Shown here: positions 2,494 to 64,000 of the stretch, piece after piece
Layout: the number at the start of each line of letters is the position of its first letter
Numbering within the stretch: position 1 is the stretch's first letter
Origin: Alphaproteobacteria bacterium
GTDB taxonomy: Bacteria > Pseudomonadota > Alphaproteobacteria > Rs-D84 > SZUA-605
Direction: 5' to 3'
DNA: 64,000 nucleotides
NCBI GenBank assembly: GCA_031549385.1
Contig: JAVBPW010000001.1
Span: forward strand, 320,001 to 384,000
Notes under the pieces: generated by a model
Told to the model about the DNA's origin: nothing
Databases searched by the model: none
The model's input: only the letters and a program-made list of their open reading frames with translations
Translations under genes and position numbers: made by a program

Positions 2494-2502
2494 GGTGTTC
2501 CA

Positions 2503-2670
2503 GACGATGATGCTGCAAACACAGCGGAGTTGAAGGAAGAACAAAGCTTTAAGCTTTTATTAGAACCTTCCGGGTTTGCCCGATATAGCTTATCAAAGAC
2601 CAAAGTAAGGTGGCACCGCGAATCTTTCGCCCTTATAGTTATAAAATTTTAAAGAAGTTATGTAAGGAGC
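2503..2670 (+). promoter_or_regulatory. T-box riboswitch, probably translational, with ultrashort stem I
   Basis: Antiterminator-type fold AAGG-TGGCACC-GCGAA-tct-TTCGC-CCTT (2607-2634); stem II GAAGG..CCTTC; stem IIA CGGG-TTTG-CCCG; upstream of an aminoacyl-tRNA synthetase gene. Confidence 0.8.
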
Positions 2671-32633: not shown

Positions 32634-32763
32634 GTTGTTTGAAATACAAATTTTACAATATAAATAAAATTGACATTTTATTAATTATTTGTCAATTAAT
32701 TATTGACAAATGGTATTTTGTATGCTATATTATAATAGTATTAATAATAAACCTAAATAATAT

Positions 32764-57733: not shown

Positions 57734-57819
57734 TGGTGCGGGTGGCCGGACTTGAACCGGCACGGCCTTGCGGCCAACGGATTTTAAGTCCGTAGCGTCT
57801 ACCATTCCGCCACACCCGC
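57734..57819 (-). tRNA. tRNA-Leu(TAA)
   Basis: Cloverleaf with long variable arm, TAA anticodon, CCA end. Confidence 0.95.
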
Positions 57820-57896
57820 TTAAAATCAGGTATTTAGTATATGTTCTTGATTACAAGAAATCAAGAATAAAATGTCTTTCTTTAAATTTTTTTGAA

Positions 57897-58337
57897 TTAC
57901 ATAGGGCCGCCAGATGGCATTGTTGAGAATCGACCTATATTATTAAATAATTCTTCAACAGGATTTAGCTCAACTGCATTTTCAATTGGAGTTGATGATT
58001 TGTCGAAGTGTATATTTCTTTTATCTTTCAATGTTAAAGTTTGTCTGTTTTGGATTTTACCATCTTTGAAAGTTAAAAGATTTAGTTCATATTTTTCATA
58101 GTATGGATTTAAGAATGCTGTTTGACGCATTACTGAACCAAAATATATCCATGTTTCGTCTTTTCCAAACATTGTTGTTGCTGATGGAGTCCCTAGTTCT
58201 TTTAATACATCTGTTTTTGAATTTACTTTTTCAAATGCAACTTTTTCATCATCTGTAAAAATTTTACCTTTGTTTAGAACTTTTGTTCCACAACCTGACA
58301 TAAATAAAACTAAAGATAGAATAAATAACTTTTTCAT
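57897..58337 (-). CDS. bamE: Outer membrane assembly lipoprotein BamE
   Basis: Lipobox MSGC; VLKELGTPS...ETWIY; LFNNIGRF tail typical of alphaproteobacterial BamE. Confidence 0.85.
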   Translation of the reverse strand: MKKLFILSLVLFMSGCGTKVLNKGKIFTDDEKVAFEKVNSKTDVLKELGTPSATTMFGKDETWIYFGSVMRQTAFLNPYYEKYELNLLTFKDGKIQNRQTLTLKDKRNIHFDKSSTPIENAVELNPVEELFNNIGRFSTMPSGGPM

Positions 58338-59482
58338 TATGCGTTCTTACCCCAACGATGGTGTATCCATAACCATTGGTCTGGATTTTCTCTTACCCAA
58401 CTTTCAATAAGATCGTTTACTTTTTGCATACCTTCGTTTATTTCTTTTTCAGAACTGCCTTTGAAATACATTGGTTTGTGTAAAACTATTTTATGTTTTA
58501 TCCCCTTTACTCTTACTATTTGAACAGGAAGAATAGGGCAGTCAAAATGATTTGCTAATTTTACAGCAACAGTTGATGTCATTGCTTTTTTACCAAAGAA
58601 TGTTAGTGGTTTTCCTTGTGTAAAATATTGGTCTGGGGCAATTGCAACTGGAAGACCTCTTTTTAAGAAATCCAAAGATTTTTTAATTCCCATTTTACTT
58701 TTTGGAAGAAATTCTACGTCTATACCTTTTCCTGATACACCTTTTCCAAATCCTTTTTGTAATAAATCTAATGTTACTGGATTATTTGGAAAACGATAGA
58801 TAACTCCAACTGGAAATCCTTTTTTTGTAAATGGTAGTGAAATCATACCAAGAGAATTAAAATGTGCAAATACAGCTACGAATCTATGATTTGGTAGATT
58901 TGTTAGATATTTTTCATTTTCAACTTGTAAGTATTTTTCATTTCTGTAGAAGAATCTTAAATGTGGAATTTCAAATACCATTCTTCCGAAATTTTTCCAC
59001 ATGCCTTTTACTATTTTTTGTTGTTCTTCTTTTTTCATTTTAGGAAAAGCTATATTAACATTTTTATAAGCTAATTTATTTCTTTTATATAATATTTTTC
59101 CTGCAATCATTCCTAAACATGACCCAATTGAAGATGCAAATTTTACTGGGATTAATTTTATTACTAACATAAATGAATAGCCTAAGAATGCTTCAATAGG
59201 ATGAATTATCCAAGTCTTTATAAATCCATAATTTCTTTGTGGAATACCTTCATGCTTTGGTTGCTTTAAAAAGAATGTTACTATTAAAAATATAAATAGG
59301 ACAGGTATTGATATCATGTAAAAGCTTTGGAATATACATGCTATTATTCCGAGCAATAAAAGAAAGTGACTCAATATACTTTGTTTAGCAAAAGCCACGT
59401 AGGCAGGTAAAAAGAAAAGTAATCCTAGTAATATAGGATAGTTTTCGGCGAAATAACTTATTTCATATATGATTTGTTCCAT
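58337..59482 (-). CDS. Lipid A acyltransferase (LpxL/HtrB family) with an extra N-terminal membrane domain
   Basis: NVNIAFP, NFGR..FE, AHF, PDQ, FFGK.A, NPDQWLWIHHRW. Confidence 0.85.
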   Translation of the reverse strand: MEQIIYEISYFAENYPILLGLLFFLPAYVAFAKQSILSHFLLLLGIIACIFQSFYMISIPVLFIFLIVTFFLKQPKHEGIPQRNYGFIKTWIIHPIEAFLGYSFMLVIKLIPVKFASSIGSCLGMIAGKILYKRNKLAYKNVNIAFPKMKKEEQQKIVKGMWKNFGRMVFEIPHLRFFYRNEKYLQVENEKYLTNLPNHRFVAVFAHFNSLGMISLPFTKKGFPVGVIYRFPNNPVTLDLLQKGFGKGVSGKGIDVEFLPKSKMGIKKSLDFLKRGLPVAIAPDQYFTQGKPLTFFGKKAMTSTVAVKLANHFDCPILPVQIVRVKGIKHKIVLHKPMYFKGSSEKEINEGMQKVNDLIESWVRENPDQWLWIHHRWGKNA

Positions 59483-59587
59483 AGTTAGTTATTGTATAAA
59501 AACTTTTGTTTTCTTTCAAGGATTTTTTTCGGCTTGATAAATGTCTCAAATTTTGGTATAATATTTATATAATTATAGGAGAAAAAG

Positions 59588-59854
59588 ATGAAAAAATTAC
59601 TTTTTGCTTTGGTTGTTACTGTATCAACAGTATCATTTGCTGAAATGGAACCAAATTATTATGATATTTCAGAAGCATATGGATCATTACAAAGATTACG
59701 TGCTCAATGTGGAGATTCTAAACCAGGTTGTGCTGGGGTTTGCTCACAAGGGATTAATTATTCAATGAGCCAAATGAGTAGCGGGGCTAATGTTTCTCCT
59801 GAAGTTGCAGCACAATTAAAACAATATTGGTGGTCTTGCTTAAATTCACTATAA
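59588..59854 (+). CDS. Small secreted four-Cys protein
   Basis: Signal peptide, SD AGGAGA, TTGATA-17-TATAAT promoter, own terminator. Confidence 0.7.
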   Translation: MKKLLFALVVTVSTVSFAEMEPNYYDISEAYGSLQRLRAQCGDSKPGCAGVCSQGINYSMSQMSSGANVSPEVAAQLKQYWWSCLNSL

Positions 59855-59924
59855 TTTAAGTAGGTTTATAAAGTTAGACGGTCTTTTTTAAAAGGCTGTT
59901 TTTTGTTGAAATTTAAATAGTGGG

Positions 59925-60361
59925 TTTTATAATCAGGTGTGATATTAAAATTTCAAACCTAAAATTATATATGTTATGCTTAGATTGTTAAATATAGGAT
60001 CTTTGATCCAAGCAGCCTTGATTGTTTGCTTTTTTGTTTTTTTAAACAATCCTGAGATTGTTTTTTTTAAAAATGAATTTGTACAATGGGGAATATTTTT
60101 ATTTTTTCTGTTTTTCCTCATTTTTTATTTCAAAAAAGCTAATCATGAAGTTGATGATGATACGTATTTGGGATTGTATTTTTTTGTTCTTGTTGTATGG
60201 TTTGTTATTATGGGGTCATTTGCAACAAATAGTGGTGGAATTGATTATTTTGATTATCCTTATCACTGATTTTTTAAAAGGCTGGGTTTCCAGCTTTTTT
60301 TATTGTAATTTTGCCATTAGTTTTTATAATCAAGTGTGATATTAAAATTTCAAACTTAAAA
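59925..60361 (+). repeat. 40-bp direct repeat (promoter -10 plus leader), copies at 59925-59964 and 60322-60361
   Basis: TTTTATAATCARGTGTGATATTAAAATTTCAAACYTAAAA, 38 of 40 identical. Confidence 0.9.
59976..60269 (+). CDS. Three-TM hypothetical protein (paralog 1)
   Basis: 97 aa, Phe-rich; own promoter and terminator. Confidence 0.7.
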   Translation: MLRLLNIGSLIQAALIVCFFVFLNNPEIVFFKNEFVQWGIFLFFLFFLIFYFKKANHEVDDDTYLGLYFFVLVVWFVIMGSFATNSGGIDYFDYPYH

Positions 60362-60369
60362 CTTAAAAT

Positions 60370-60663
60370 ATGAATAAATATCTCTTAATGCTGGGTTGTT
60401 TTACCCTTATAGCATTTATTGTTATTTTCTTTTATTTCATTAATGTAGATTCAGGTATTTTTAAAGGTAATTTTTTTTTACATGCGTCTGCAATATGTTT
60501 TTTCTTTTTCATCGTTGTATATATTCGAATTACTAGGAATTTGTTCAATGATGGAATGTGGGTTGGAATCTATATATTGCTTTTGGTTATATGGTTTGTT
60601 TTAATTGTATCATATAACGGAGTGGAAACAATTATGATTGAAGTAAAAGAATTGTTCAAATAA
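60370..60663 (+). CDS. Three-TM hypothetical protein (paralog 2)
   Basis: 97 aa; shares FK.....C/IF.FF and G.Y...LV.WFV pattern with 59976-60269. Confidence 0.7.
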   Translation: MNKYLLMLGCFTLIAFIVIFFYFINVDSGIFKGNFFLHASAICFFFFIVVYIRITRNLFNDGMWVGIYILLLVIWFVLIVSYNGVETIMIEVKELFK

Positions 60664-60708
60664 AAAGGCTGGAATTTCCAGCCTATTTTTTATTTAAATC
60701 AGCTATTA

Positions 60709-60981
60709 TTAGTTTACAGCGTCTTTTAAAGCTTTACCAGCTTTGAATTTTGGTTGTACTGATGCAGCAATTTTAATTGTAGCACCTGTTTGTGGGTTAC
60801 GTCCTGTTGTAGCTTTTCTTTTTACTGTTGTAAATGTTCCAAATCCTACTAAACGTACTTCTTCTTTCTTTTTCAAAGCTTTTGTTACAACTTCGATAAA
60901 TGCATCTAATGCTCTTGCTGCATCAGCTTGTGACATATCGATTTTTTCTGCAATAGCTTGTACTAATTCTTTTTTATTCAT
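60709..60981 (-). CDS. hup: DNA-binding protein HU
   Basis: [29 protein letters not shown]. Confidence 0.97.
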
Positions 60982-61074
60982 ATTCCCTTCTCCTTTAATT
61001 AAAGTTATTTTTGCTGTTTTTTAACCAGCATACACGAAATATACCGGATTCTTGGGGTAAAGTCAATAAAATTG

Positions 61075-61521
61075 TTATTTAATATTTTTTAAATAAACTC
61101 GAGGCACTTGGTGGGCGTCAGGTGTAGATGGAGAGCATCTTACTAAACGAGTGTTTGGGTCACGTGTGTCTTTATAATATTTGCCATCAGTTCCGTTTCC
61201 ACCAGCCATTACGTTTAAAAGTAGACCTGCTGCTATTAGGGGTCCAAATCTCCATGCATTCTTGTTTAATACTTCCCAGTTAAGTTCTTTGTTCATAAAC
61301 ATTTGTATCATATCCCATATAAAAAATATGAGCAAAAATAAAAAAAGAAATATAGCATATCTGTTGTATAGGTATGCTCCTATTGAAAATAGAGTTTGAA
61401 TATCATTTATTATATTTGTTCCAATTGCTGAATTGTTTACTGCACAATAATAGTTACTTGTTGTTTGTGCAAATGATAATCCCGGAAATAATAAACTTAT
61501 AAAAAATAATAATTTCTTCAT
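61075..61521 (-). CDS. Pilin-like (VirB2/TrbC-type) membrane protein
   Basis: Signal peptide ending in SFA, two hydrophobic helices separated by a KELNW loop, C-terminal extension. Confidence 0.4.
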   Translation of the reverse strand: MKKLLFFISLLFPGLSFAQTTSNYYCAVNNSAIGTNIINDIQTLFSIGAYLYNRYAIFLFLFLLIFFIWDMIQMFMNKELNWEVLNKNAWRFGPLIAAGLLLNVMAGGNGTDGKYYKDTRDPNTRLVRCSPSTPDAHQVPRVYLKNIK

Positions 61522-61543
61522 GTGATTGATTGTAACATTATTC

Positions 61544-62281
61544 TTAATCATAGTCAACTTTTACAAAATATAAACCTTGCGCTGGGGCTGTTATTCCTGC
61601 TTTAGTTCTGTCTTTTGATTCTAATACTTCTTTTACCCATGAAGGTTCTTGTTTTGATAAACCTACATCAACTAATGTTCCTACTATGTTTCTTACCATG
61701 TGGTGCAGAAATGATTTTGCAGAAATGTCTATGTAAATGTATTCTCCATTTTTTGTGATGTTTATATAATCTATTGTTTTTACTGGTGATAGGGCAGTAC
61801 ATTGTGATGAGCGAAATGATGAGAAATCATGATTTCCTAATAAGTAATTTGCTGCTTTTTGCATTTGGTCTATATTTAAATCTTGAGAAATACGCCAAAC
61901 TCTGTTTTTATCTAATGCTTCTTTTGGAGTGCGATTAAGAATTATATATTGATAATATCTTTTCTTTGAAGAAAAACGAGCGTGAAAGTCTTCTGATACT
62001 TCTTCACAGTTTATTACTGAAATATCGTCTTTTACTAAATGAGCATTGATTGCCATCATTAATTTATATGGTTCAAATTGTTTTTCTATATCAAAGTGAG
62101 CTACTTGGCCTTTTGCATGAACACCTGTGTCTGTTCTGCCGCTGCCAAAAACTTGTGTTTCTTGACCTGTTATGTTGAAAATAGCAGTTTCTATGGTGCC
62201 TGCTATGGTTCTTAGGCCGTCTTGCTTTTGCCAACCATAGTAGTTTGTACCATCGTATTCTATTGTTATCTTGTATCTCAT
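61544..62281 (-). CDS. truA: tRNA pseudouridine(38-40) synthase
   Basis: EYDGTNYYGWQ, GRTDTGVHA, FHARFS, FLHHMVRNIVG. Confidence 0.96.
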   Translation of the reverse strand: MRYKITIEYDGTNYYGWQKQDGLRTIAGTIETAIFNITGQETQVFGSGRTDTGVHAKGQVAHFDIEKQFEPYKLMMAINAHLVKDDISVINCEEVSEDFHARFSSKKRYYQYIILNRTPKEALDKNRVWRISQDLNIDQMQKAANYLLGNHDFSSFRSSQCTALSPVKTIDYINITKNGEYIYIDISAKSFLHHMVRNIVGTLVDVGLSKQEPSWVKEVLESKDRTKAGITAPAQGLYFVKVDYD

Positions 62282-62376
62282 GAAGGTCATAATGACAAAA
62301 AAGTCCTTAAAAAGCAAGAAAATAAGAAAAATTTGGTTGTTGTTGACTCGGTGGTGATTTTGTGATATAATGTGAT

Positions 62377-62417
62377 TCGTTAAAAAGATGTATTTGGGCC
62401 ATTAAGGCTCATTTTTT
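62377..62417 (+). ncRNA. Putative ~40-nt RNA, array unit A
   Basis: TTGACT(62343)-17-TATAAT; terminator TGGGCC-attaa-GGCTCA plus T6. Confidence 0.5.
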
Positions 62418-62452
62418 ATTGACTTAGTTAAAGTTTTGAAGTATAATGATTT

Positions 62453-62523
62453 TTAGCATAGCAAAAGCAGTAAGTTCATATATATATATAAATAGGTTTG
62501 ACCTCCGTACGCGGGGGTTTTTT
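62453..62523 (+). ncRNA. Putative ~70-nt RNA, array unit B
   Basis: TTGACT(62419)-17-TATAAT; terminator ACCTCCG-TACG-CGGGGGT plus T tract. Confidence 0.55.
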
Positions 62524-62604
62524 ATTGCCTATTGACAAGTGTTTGTTATTGTGATATATTCTAAGGACAGTTAAATAAATAATAAACCAAAAAACAAACC
62601 GCGT

Positions 62605-62727
62605 ATGTTTATACGAGCGCCCCTGTGGGCAGAATTCCAAAACCAAAAATGTAGCAGTCGCGCCAATATGCAAGCTACAAACAAGACGAACAGAAGTATT
62701 TCGACGTCACCGGTGAATTCGATTTAA
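62605..62727 (+). CDS. 40-aa small ORF, array unit C
   Basis: TTGACA(62532)-17-TATATT; A-rich leader; MFIRAPLWAEFQNQKCSSRANMQATNKTNRSISTSPVNSI; terminator CCCAGCC..GGCTGGG plus T tract. Confidence 0.4.
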   Translation: MFIRAPLWAEFQNQKCSSRANMQATNKTNRSISTSPVNSI

Positions 62728-62813
62728 TCTACCCAGCCATGAGATAGGCTGGGATTTTTTTATTAAAATTTTAAGGGTATTGACTCGTTACCTGATTCGT
62801 GATAGAATCTTAT

Positions 62814-62990
62814 TTACATTTAATTAGTAAACTAAACCTAAAAATAAACGTATGAAATAAAAAGCGGCTGGGCCGCAGAGAAAAAATTAAAAAATAAATA
62901 ATAAAAAACTTAAAACAAGTGCGGATTAGCACCAATTGAGCTTAAGCTCCAATAAAAACATAGAGGCGCCATTAGTGCGCCTTTCTTTTT
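62814..62990 (+). ncRNA. Multi-hairpin RNA with a Met-Lys-stop minigene, array unit D
   Basis: TTGACT(62780)-17-TAGAAT; three short hairpins in A-rich linkers; terminator AGGCGC..GCGCCT followed by TTCTTTT. Confidence 0.5.
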
Positions 62991-63074
62991 GGCTAAATTT
63001 TGACTTTTACATAAGTAACTTGACAAAAGTAAATAATCCCTTATATTGTTGGTATAAACTTAAAAAATATACAT

Positions 63075-63251
63075 ATGGACAAAAAAATTTATGGGGCAAC
63101 AATAGACCCCGATGGTGCAAAATGTTGCACCGAAACTGAAAGACCTCGTAATGAAGGTGTAGTAGCAAAGACATTGGAAGATGTTTTGCACTTTGAAGGA
63201 AAGGTTCCTGACCACTATCTGTGGTTAAGTATTTACAGGGTAAAGCAGTAG
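63075..63251 (+). CDS. 58-aa small ORF, array unit E
   Basis: TTGACA(63020)-16-TATATT; TAAACTTAAAAAA leader; MDKKIYGATIDPDGAKCCTETERPRNEGVVAKTLEDVLHFEGKVPDHYLWLSIYRVKQ; terminator 63276-63307. Confidence 0.55.
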   Translation: MDKKIYGATIDPDGAKCCTETERPRNEGVVAKTLEDVLHFEGKVPDHYLWLSIYRVKQ

Positions 63252-63344
63252 TGGAGTGTGAGTTTTAACTCTGTTTAAGGTGTCTTTTTTAGGCACCTTA
63301 TTTTTTTGCCTTGAATGGTTTTGGTATTTATGATATAGTGTTGT

Positions 63345-63523
63345 AACTTTTTACGATTAAACTAGCCCTTTGGGCTGCTTAAAGATCCTTATGGGATCGA
63401 TTACTTGCCAGCAATGGTAAGACTACGAATTTTATTTAAAATTAAATTTAATTAATCAATGAGAAAACAATTTTAATTGTTTTATTTATTGGCAAAGAAA
63501 GAGGCTCTTTTGGAGCCTCTTTT
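63345..63523 (+). ncRNA. Multi-hairpin RNA, array unit F
   Basis: TTGAAT(63311)-17-TATAGT; three GC hairpins; ends at a terminator shared with dnaN. Confidence 0.45.
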
Positions 63524-63527
63524 GATT

Positions 63528-64000
63528 TTATCTTCTTAATGGCATTAACACATATAAGAAATTGTTATTCTTTGGCTCTTGAATGATACATGGAGCAAGT
63601 CCAGTTGAGAATAAGAATTCAACTTCATCTGTTTTTATTTGTGATGCTGCTTCAAGAAGGAATTTTACTTTGAATGTTGATTCTAATGCTACATCACTGT
63701 TAAATTCTACTTCAATTTCTTCTGTACCACTTCCAAGTTCACTTGCACTTGCAGATAGTGTTAGTTTGTTTGTTTTTACAGACATCTTAATATCTTTGAA
63801 TTTATCGTTTGATACTGATGAGATTCTGTCTACACCTGCTGTGAATAACTTGCAGTTTACTTTTAATACGTTCTTGTTTCCTTTTGGAATTACAACACCA
63901 TAGTCTGGAAATTTTCCGTCAATTAACTTTGATGTCATTACTAAATTCTTAAATGAAAATCTTGTTTTTGTTTCTGATACTTCAATTGTTATATCTTCTT
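63528..64000 (-). CDS. dnaN: DNA polymerase III beta clamp (C-terminal part; start outside the window)
   Basis: SKLIDGKFPDY..VIP and terminal YVLMPLR. Confidence 0.95.
   Translation of the reverse strand, partial: EDITIEVSETKTRFSFKNLVMTSKLIDGKFPDYGVVIPKGNKNVLKVNCKLFTAGVDRISSVSNDKFKDIKMSVKTNKLTLSASASELGSGTEEIEVEFNSDVALESTFKVKFLLEAASQIKTDEVEFLFSTGLAPCIIQEPKNNNFLYVLMPLRR

Follow-up and report, generated by a model that had tools for sequence, protein, structure and literature searches.

The six-unit array between truA and dnaN

The window considered here, a stretch of 64,000 nucleotides (nt; C7:320001-384000), contains between the genes truA and dnaN a spacer of 1,246 bp (62282-63527) with six short promoter–terminator units, A to F, in tandem on the plus strand (Table 1). 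Positions refer to the window unless a contig such as C7 is named. The small, symbiont-like genome comprises 931 kb in 8 contigs with a GC content of 30% and is 97% complete, and the sole sequencing run containing this DNA is an invertebrate-gut metagenome, no RNA run being listed for it. A two-piece alpha_tmRNA (transfer-messenger RNA; 166.8 bits, C7:155577-155929), which was overlooked by ARAGORN, is of a type that we take to indicate an alphaproteobacterium. The standard code fits the genome, as table 11 puts 86% of it in open reading frames (ORFs) of at least 150 amino acids (aa), and an alternative genetic code was ruled out on the same grounds. Both border genes were confirmed by Pfam, and a longest-ORF scan of the spacer gave zero ORFs of at least 80 aa. 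The region is therefore, as a preliminary description of the window had put it, nearly empty of ORFs. Among the ORF-free stretches of the genome it is one of the 6 longest; of the remaining five, three are rRNA. The two small ORFs reported before, of 40 aa in unit C and 58 aa in unit E, do exist.

Promoters were scored against the sigma-70 consensus at 12 positions and compared with 2000 dinucleotide shuffles of the 1,246-bp spacer. All six same-strand promoters described as near-consensus were recovered in place, five of them with at least 10/12, but promoter F reached only 9/12. On the plus strand, the five promoters of at least 10/12 compare to a shuffle mean of 0.40 (standard deviation 0.64) and the four of at least 11/12 to a mean of 0.04, and neither count was matched in any of the 2000 shuffles. 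The minus strand of the spacer contained no promoter of at least 10/12, the best being a match of 9/12 at 63026. For terminator-like sites, a 3-kb scan gave 10 compared to 1.5 ± 1.1 in shuffles. Six plus-strand terminators consisting of a hairpin and a T tract, one between each -10 box and the following -35 box, were confirmed, as had been claimed for the closure of each unit. The order on the plus strand is a strict alternation of promoter and terminator.

Of the 118 promoters of at least 11/12 in the genome, 73 lie in its intergenic 10%, so that near-consensus matches act like genuine signals in it. In nine other long ORF-free spacers, no comparable same-strand alternation of promoters and terminators was seen. 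Altogether, the six-unit array is a genuine feature, which is far from random and has no equal in its genome, and the earlier wording of a modular array of small RNA (sRNA) and microprotein transcription units describes its anatomy fairly.

An independent Logan contig of the DNA run covers 57763-64000 without a break and at even depth, so the junction of truA and dnaN does not originate from a misassembly. The sole difference over these 6.2 kb is one base, 62708 C>A, which introduces a TAA at codon 35 of the unit C ORF and also disrupts a predicted G-C pair in this unit.

A hint of expression comes from one of two metatranscriptome libraries of the same study (X2), in which the summed word depth was 19.5 on the bin 62350-62683 (units A-C) and 7.8 on the bin 62684-63017 (units C-D). 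Contigs of this library match neighbouring genes of the organism exactly, among the matches listed. The bins 63018-63351 (unit E) and 62016-62349 showed no cover in X2, and the second library, X3, showed none on the spacer. The cover in X2 is a weak hint, which could also originate from DNA carry-over or from 90-95% matches of other organisms.

Table 1. Promoters and units of the truA–dnaN spacer and the two bordering genes, with window positions; transcripts and RNAs are predicted.
Feature	Position	Strand	Remarks
truA (tRNA pseudouridine synthase)	61544-62281	-	left border; PF01416, E 1.8e-46
Promoter A	62343-62371	+	TTGACT-17-TATAAT, 11/12, TG-extended
Unit A	62343-62418	+	~40-nt transcript; terminator stem 62395-62411 plus T6
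Promoter B	62419-62447	+	TTGACT-17-TATAAT, 11/12
Unit B	62419-62526	+	~70-nt transcript; terminator stem 62500-62519
Promoter C	62532-62560	+	TTGACA-17-TATATT, 11/12
Unit C	62532-62762	+	leader motif 62583-62594; 40-aa ORF 62605-62727; terminator stem 62732-62753
Promoter D	62780-62808	+	TTGACT-17-TAGAAT, 10/12
Unit D	62780-62993	+	leader motif 62833-62844; ATG AAA TAA 62852-62860; bidirectional terminator stem 62962-62984
Promoter E	63020-63047	+	TTGACA-16-TATATT, 11/12
Unit E	63020-63310	+	canonical leader 63055-63066; 58-aa ORF 63075-63251; 10-bp terminator stem 63276-63300
Promoter F	63311-63339	+	TTGAAT-17-TATAGT, 9/12, weakest, TG-extended
Unit F	63311-63531	+	~185-nt RNA; hairpins 63363-63377, 63384-63398, 63404-63421, 63456-63492
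dnaN, 3' part (beta clamp)	63528-64000	-	right border, convergent with the six units; PF02768, E 3.4e-27; full ORF C7:383528-384640

Gene format and leader motif of the genome

Single units of this kind are frequent in the genome. A mini-unit was defined as a promoter of at least 10/12 with a terminator within 320 nt and without an ORF of at least 80 aa. Accordingly, 42 mini-units were counted genome-wide, many of which enclose ORFs of 45-79 aa or tRNAs; their ORFs include a 58-aa ferredoxin-like one and small membrane proteins. Furthermore, 58 of 881 ORFs bear both a strong promoter and a terminator. The succession of promoter, cargo and terminator is thus the common gene format of this genome, and the spacer stands out by its succession of six units that have hardly any cargo. 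Since the format is common and the six cargoes share nothing, the array is not supported as the undescribed system for which it had been proposed as a candidate.

Examples of the format lie in the window itself. At 59534-60684, three consecutive plus-strand modules carry ORFs of 88, 97 and 97 aa, each with its promoter and terminator, and the two 97-aa ORFs (59976-60663) encode paralogous membrane proteins without a Pfam family. A recurrence of the spacer's architecture had been noted at 27.6, 32.7 and 59.5 kb. Modules are indeed present at 32.7 and 59.5 kb, but they contain orphan ORFs of 88-166 aa, and the site at 27.6 kb is one mini-unit of 91 nt. Compared to small-protein genes of this genome such as the 97-aa pair and a 58-aa gene at C5:31591-31862, the units of the spacer agree in promoter consensus, leader and terminator type, and unit E is indistinguishable from these genes in its format. 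In contrast to them, units A, B, D and F comprise no plausible ORF, and six units in a row were found nowhere else in the genome.

The leader motif TAAACYTAAAAA (at most 1 mismatch), also given as TAAACTTAAAAAAT, showed 181 matches genome-wide, 80 of them in the intergenic 10%. In 56 of these 80 cases the ATG of an ORF of at least 30 aa follows within 30 nt, with a peak of the distance at 7-12 nt; the distances in units C, D and E are 10, 7 and 8 nt. The matches in the window begin at 32748, 53843, 62583, 62833 and 63055, and the genes marked in this way are mostly small. A Shine-Dalgarno-like site was found for ~60% of the genes and the leader for ~12%. Compared to 14 matches of a reversed control, a 14-mer of the leader showed 40 matches in this genome, and it was not enriched in 40 relatives. 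Five other gene starts of the genome are similar to unit E in promoter and leader, and their common part comprises CTTGACAAA, a variable 17-nt spacer, TATATT or TATAAT and (G)TATAAACTTAAAAAATA, with the ATG a few bases on. Often the leader lies 5-7 nt past the -10 box.

The leader probably forms the extreme 5' terminus of the mRNA, and it may act as a translation signal independent of a Shine-Dalgarno site. Possibly this motif is the more general finding; it marks a class of mostly small genes and would stand in for the Shine-Dalgarno site before many of them.

The preliminary description had pointed out strings shared between promoters A and D and between the leaders of units C and D, and had explained them by duplication and divergence of the units. 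The strings are present, although the leaders of C and D differ by a 3-nt insertion or deletion and not in two unspecified bases. Their interpretation is not supported, since the shared strings are the promoter consensus and the leader found throughout the genome, and the unit bodies cannot be aligned with each other outside promoter, leader and terminator-tail strings. The likeness of A and D and of C and D therefore reflects the usual expression signals of this genome and is not evidence of duplication. When 43 mini-units were compared, the only common string was the leader, apart from one unrelated 104-nt pair on contig C4. This pair, C4:83403-83498 and C4:96354-96450, consists of two ORF-less mini-units on the minus strand, which are 90% identical over 104 nt and lie 13 kb apart; it could be a duplicated small RNA gene.

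Propagated or putatively mobile promoters have been described in bacteria, and they resemble the present case in that a similar stretch of ~65 nt with promoter and leader precedes non-homologous genes. In contrast to mobile promoters, only the functional boxes are conserved here and the spacers between -35 and -10 are wholly different, which fits shared constraint better than recent copying.

Contents of the six units

Unit E is the best candidate for a protein gene of the array. Its coding score (log-odds of codon usage) was +0.24 in frame, compared to values from -0.46 to -0.76 for the five remaining frames, and lies within the range of segments of real genes (5th percentile 0.10). The unit shows the features of the small-protein genes with leader, namely promoter, leader 7-12 nt before the ATG, closure of the ORF by a terminator and genic codons. 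Based on the canonical leader and the gene-like codon usage, unit E is predicted to encode what is probably a real small protein.

Unit F comprises five consecutive perfect hairpins including the terminator. This 12-bp terminator (63497-63523) is bidirectional and also closes dnaN from the opposite side. The minimum free energy of the unit was calculated as -52.8 kcal/mol compared to -30.9 ± 3.9 for shuffles (z -5.67), and none of 200 shuffles folded as well. According to this folding calculation, unit F is likely a structured small RNA.

For unit C, the in-frame coding score of -0.37 is no better than that of other frames, and at least 95% of real genes score higher. The GC content at third codon positions (GC3) is 0.50 compared to a genome mean of 0.17, and the fold z-score is -2.57. 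The body of the unit is a GC island (43-48%), one of ~49 intergenic GC islands that are mostly tRNA, rRNA, RNase P or tmRNA. Unit C could be a gene for a 40-aa protein of foreign-like composition or a structured small RNA that retains leader and ORF, the latter being more likely.

Further GC islands of 45-51% overlap mini-units at C1:1641-1800, C1:44221-44380, C4:12721-12900, C7:52161-52460, C7:166441-166620 and C7:322501-322620 (window 2501-2620), and these are candidate small RNA genes.

In unit D, the leader is followed after 7 nt by an ATG and the frame stops after two codons. The A/T-rich body contains four small hairpins (z -1.55), and 14 of 200 shuffles fold equally well. With leader and ATG intact and an early stop, unit D looks in its sequence like a disabled small-gene module. 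In unit A, the only ORF has 5 codons (MYLGH) and the fold z-score is -1.94; unit B contains an (AT)n run and no ATG (z -0.95). Both look like very short transcripts or vestigial promoter–terminator stubs with little beyond the terminator.

The translations of units C and E are polar and charged, without a stretch of the length of a membrane helix. Tandem arrangements of small ORFs and RNAs can resemble type I or type III toxin–antitoxin loci, and a set of such modules had been considered for this array. However, neither a hydrophobic membrane peptide among the ORFs of C and E nor a minus-strand promoter of at least 10/12 for an antisense antitoxin, as type I would need, is present in the spacer. 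As for type III, the tandem repeats of the spacer are only A-rich 7-8-mers and two terminator arms, so that no RNA repeat array is formed, and the spacer holds no gene of the size of an endoribonuclease. No toxin family was matched in Pfam; PADLOC was not searched. Toxin–antitoxin-like modules are thus scarcely credible here.

The units are orphans in all searches. With Rfam 15, including its alphaproteobacterial sRNAs, nothing in the spacer reached the gathering threshold and no credible match was seen at E<=10, the best being rseX with 28.6 bits compared to a gathering threshold of 50. A scan of the spacer for tRNA and tmRNA found none. The tmRNA, signal recognition particle (SRP) RNA and RNase P RNA of the organism were located outside the spacer, the SRP RNA (C2:47903-47991, 33.9 bits) just below the Rfam cut-off. 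Neither 6S RNA nor an Hfq gene was found in the 97%-complete genome. In Pfam, the ORFs of units C and E matched no family, and fn3 does not hit E. No homologues of either were found in a word-indexed protein set, spacer and ORFs showed no match with a meaningful E-value in 40 genomes of the same order, and within the own genome no paralogue of the units was seen at E<=0.5 beyond chance level. A protein atlas search gave a best value of 0.81, which is chance level. In an exhaustive HMMER search, unit E hit 3 long repeat proteins, the best (E 3.1e-13) being a 2368-aa autotransporter with 21 FN3 stretches. Since this score sums ~10 near-identical weak matches of 24-26 bits each, it was rejected as an artefact of repeat summation.

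The preliminary description had also suggested comparing the cargoes with phage and host mRNAs. No match at E<=1e-3 was obtained in 50,697 phage and 72,556 plasmid records. Antisense matches of units A, C, D, E and F to 881 translation-start regions were no longer than those of shuffles; only unit B gave a longer one (15 nt, shuffle maximum 13), which lies inside its (AT)n run. Rfam families or decayed genes had been named as findings that would speak against a new system. No Rfam match exists, and decay is indicated in part, in unit D.

A horizontally transferred remnant of a phage, a plasmid or an integron-like cassette would explain that the bodies of C, E and F have 40-48% GC in a genome of 30% GC and that the GC3 of C and E exceeds the 95th percentile of genes. 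Structured RNA would give rise to GC islands just as well, however, and apart from the missing phage and plasmid matches, no flanking repeats were found. Promoters and leaders are those typical of this genome, the leader being unenriched in the 40 relatives. The nearest tyrosine recombinase (PF00589) lies at C7:405800, ~22 kb away (attC models were not run), and every unit has its own promoter compared to the promoterless cassettes of integrons. Clustered regularly interspaced short palindromic repeats (CRISPR) are not indicated either, as the spacer contains no regularly spaced direct repeats and its apparent repeat families are promoter boxes in irregular spacing. A foreign origin of the array is therefore very unlikely.

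Origin of the array and comparison with known systems

Transcription, translation and function of the units are inferred from the sequence as follows. The sigma-70 holoenzyme would start at each near-consensus promoter, and each transcript would stop 40-260 nt further on at the hairpin plus T tract. The terminators would insulate the units from each other and block antisense transcription into dnaN. The six units follow the direction of the leading strand and face dnaN head-on, and the terminators, chiefly the last one, would shield this gene from plus-strand transcription. The mRNA of unit E would begin with AAACUUAAAAAAU, 8 nt before the AUG, and the 58-aa protein would be translated from it.

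Altogether, with somewhat better than even confidence, we explain the spacer by six independent, co-oriented and densely spaced monocistronic mini-genes with ordinary signals, which carry lineage-specific orphan cargoes of mixed kind and condition and form no coordinated system. The units are orphan small-RNA and small-protein genes and thus belong to a known kind. A claim of a new system is not warranted on the basis of one metagenome-assembled genome.

Several observations weigh against this explanation or loosen its footing. The gene census uses longest-ORF proxies and not a gene finder. Unit E, although predicted as a gene, has no credible homologue, its GC of 0.41 and GC3 of 0.34 exceed the 95th percentiles of genes (0.355 and 0.237), and a single-sequence AlphaFold model was uninformative (mean predicted local distance difference test score, pLDDT, 45.8). 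For unit C, the neat end of the ORF, 5 nt short of the terminator stem, and the correct spacing of leader and ATG argue for translation despite the poor coding score. The closest TruA proteins show identities of 45-57% in relatives, 48% in metagenome contigs and 49% in genome contigs, so that no sequence in the collections searched exceeds 57%. Finally, this 0.93-Mb genome is prone to deletion, and its retention of four promoters of 11/12 could be a sign that each of the six units is functional, which would favour the functional set discussed below.

The flanks of the spacer bear on its history. In 29 of 29 loci of relatives, no dnaN lies within 1.5 kb on the upstream side of truA. In most of them, truA is directly preceded by a same-strand ORF of ~310 aa and this by one of ~190 aa, which, going by ORF size, might be fmt and def. 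Since truA is never near dnaN in the relatives, the spacer lies at a lineage-specific rearrangement point. A tblastn search of the spacer and its margins with ORFs of at least 60 aa from the 29 truA loci gave only the N-terminus of truA in the margin. Decayed def or fmt or other flanking genes of the relatives were therefore rejected as the content of the spacer.

Nonetheless, the units could be leftovers of lineage-specific small genes, which eroded after the rearrangement and whose cargoes are dead or dying. In addition to the synteny breakpoint (dnaN within 1.5 kb of truA in 0 of 29 loci), this is suggested by unit D, in which promoter, leader, ATG and terminator are kept and yet the frame stops after codon 2, by the non-genic codon usage of the unit C ORF together with its premature-stop variant in the DNA contig of the sample, and by the nearly empty units A and B. 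Intact modules of the same format (88-97 aa) at 59.5-60.7 kb, 2.5 kb upstream, would show what such genes look like before erosion. On the other hand, no remnant of a relative's flanking ORF or of an own-genome paralogue is detectable in any frame, and few signals are contained in the other long ORF-free spacers, probably remnants of pseudogenes. Neutral decay can hardly account for the preservation of 11/12 signals at four places, and unit E scores as coding. Erosion of such genes is unlikely as an explanation of the whole array, although less so than the other alternatives.

Another explanation would be a functional set, in which most or all units are maintained as regulatory sRNAs or microproteins, with roles for instance in stress control or in the interaction with a host. 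Their clustering would be due to co-regulation or to a tolerance of the locus for insertions. The exceptionally strong and strictly alternating signals point in this direction, as do the compact packing, in which terminator tails reach into the following -35 box, and the strong structure of unit F. Four of the 73 strongest intergenic promoters of the genome (~5%) lie within these 1.2 kb, which a reduced genome has retained. A condensed cluster of five sRNAs has moreover been documented in Staphylococcus aureus Newman (PMC5496865). Contrary to this explanation, no Hfq gene was found in the 97%-complete genome, antisense matches do not go beyond shuffles save for the (AT)n run of unit B, unit D stops right after its start codon, and A and B are nearly free of cargo. 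For A, B and D, folding is not convincingly better than in shuffles, and the units form no family. A functional set ranks behind erosion and is regarded as rather improbable.

According to the most far-reaching explanation, the spacer would be a maintained, lineage-specific locus of separately transcribed sRNAs and microproteins in a host-associated, Hfq-less alphaproteobacterium of 0.93 Mb, built at a rearrangement scar from strong promoters with leader and from terminators of the genome itself, and a site of birth, trial and loss of small genes, with unit E alive, unit C in transition and unit D dead. We consider this rather improbable.

Homologous sRNA genes that lie in tandem and are each equipped with a promoter and a terminator are known from LhrC1-4 in Listeria, AbcR1/2 in Alphaproteobacteria and PrrF1/2 in Pseudomonas; the members of these arrays are paralogues with shared seed sequences. 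The six mini-genes resemble them as head-to-tail small genes that are bounded by their own promoter and intrinsic terminator. In contrast to LhrC, AbcR and PrrF, the cargoes between truA and dnaN do not align and match nothing in Rfam.

Closer in its composition is the S. aureus Newman cluster srn_9342-9346. It comprises five sRNA genes within 650 nt, one of which encodes a 33-aa secreted peptide, and it was mapped experimentally, is patchy across strains and is of unknown function (PMC5496865). Contiguous, separately started small transcripts packed into a short intergenic region are found there and are predicted for the present locus. Two antisense partners and toxin–antitoxin-like features belong to the S. 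aureus cluster (PMC5496865), whereas the present units lie on one strand, show no antisense promoter of at least 10/12 and are predicted from sequence.

If expressed, the array would illustrate with unusual density and clarity how insulated mini-genes occur naturally in a reduced genome, and it would offer six strong promoters and as many terminators within 1.2 kb. It would furthermore give an entry to the orphan small RNAs and proteins of an uncultured alphaproteobacterium of the invertebrate gut and could be a snapshot of small-gene turnover.

The spacer was also considered as oriC. This was rejected, as the GC skew does not turn at the spacer and its cumulative minimum lies near C7:80 kb, dnaA is not adjacent, and the spacer contains only one DnaA-box-like 9-mer (1 mismatch).

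For truA itself, no promoter of at least 9/12 was found. The best candidate by eye on the minus strand of 62282-62340 is TTGCTT-17-CATTAT (8/12), which stops a few bases short of the truA ATG and would mean a nearly leaderless mRNA. Directly downstream of truA lies an orphan ORF of 160 aa on the minus strand (61075-61557) without a Pfam family, the product of which could resemble type IV secretion pilins and has a signal-peptide-like N-terminus and hydrophobic segments.

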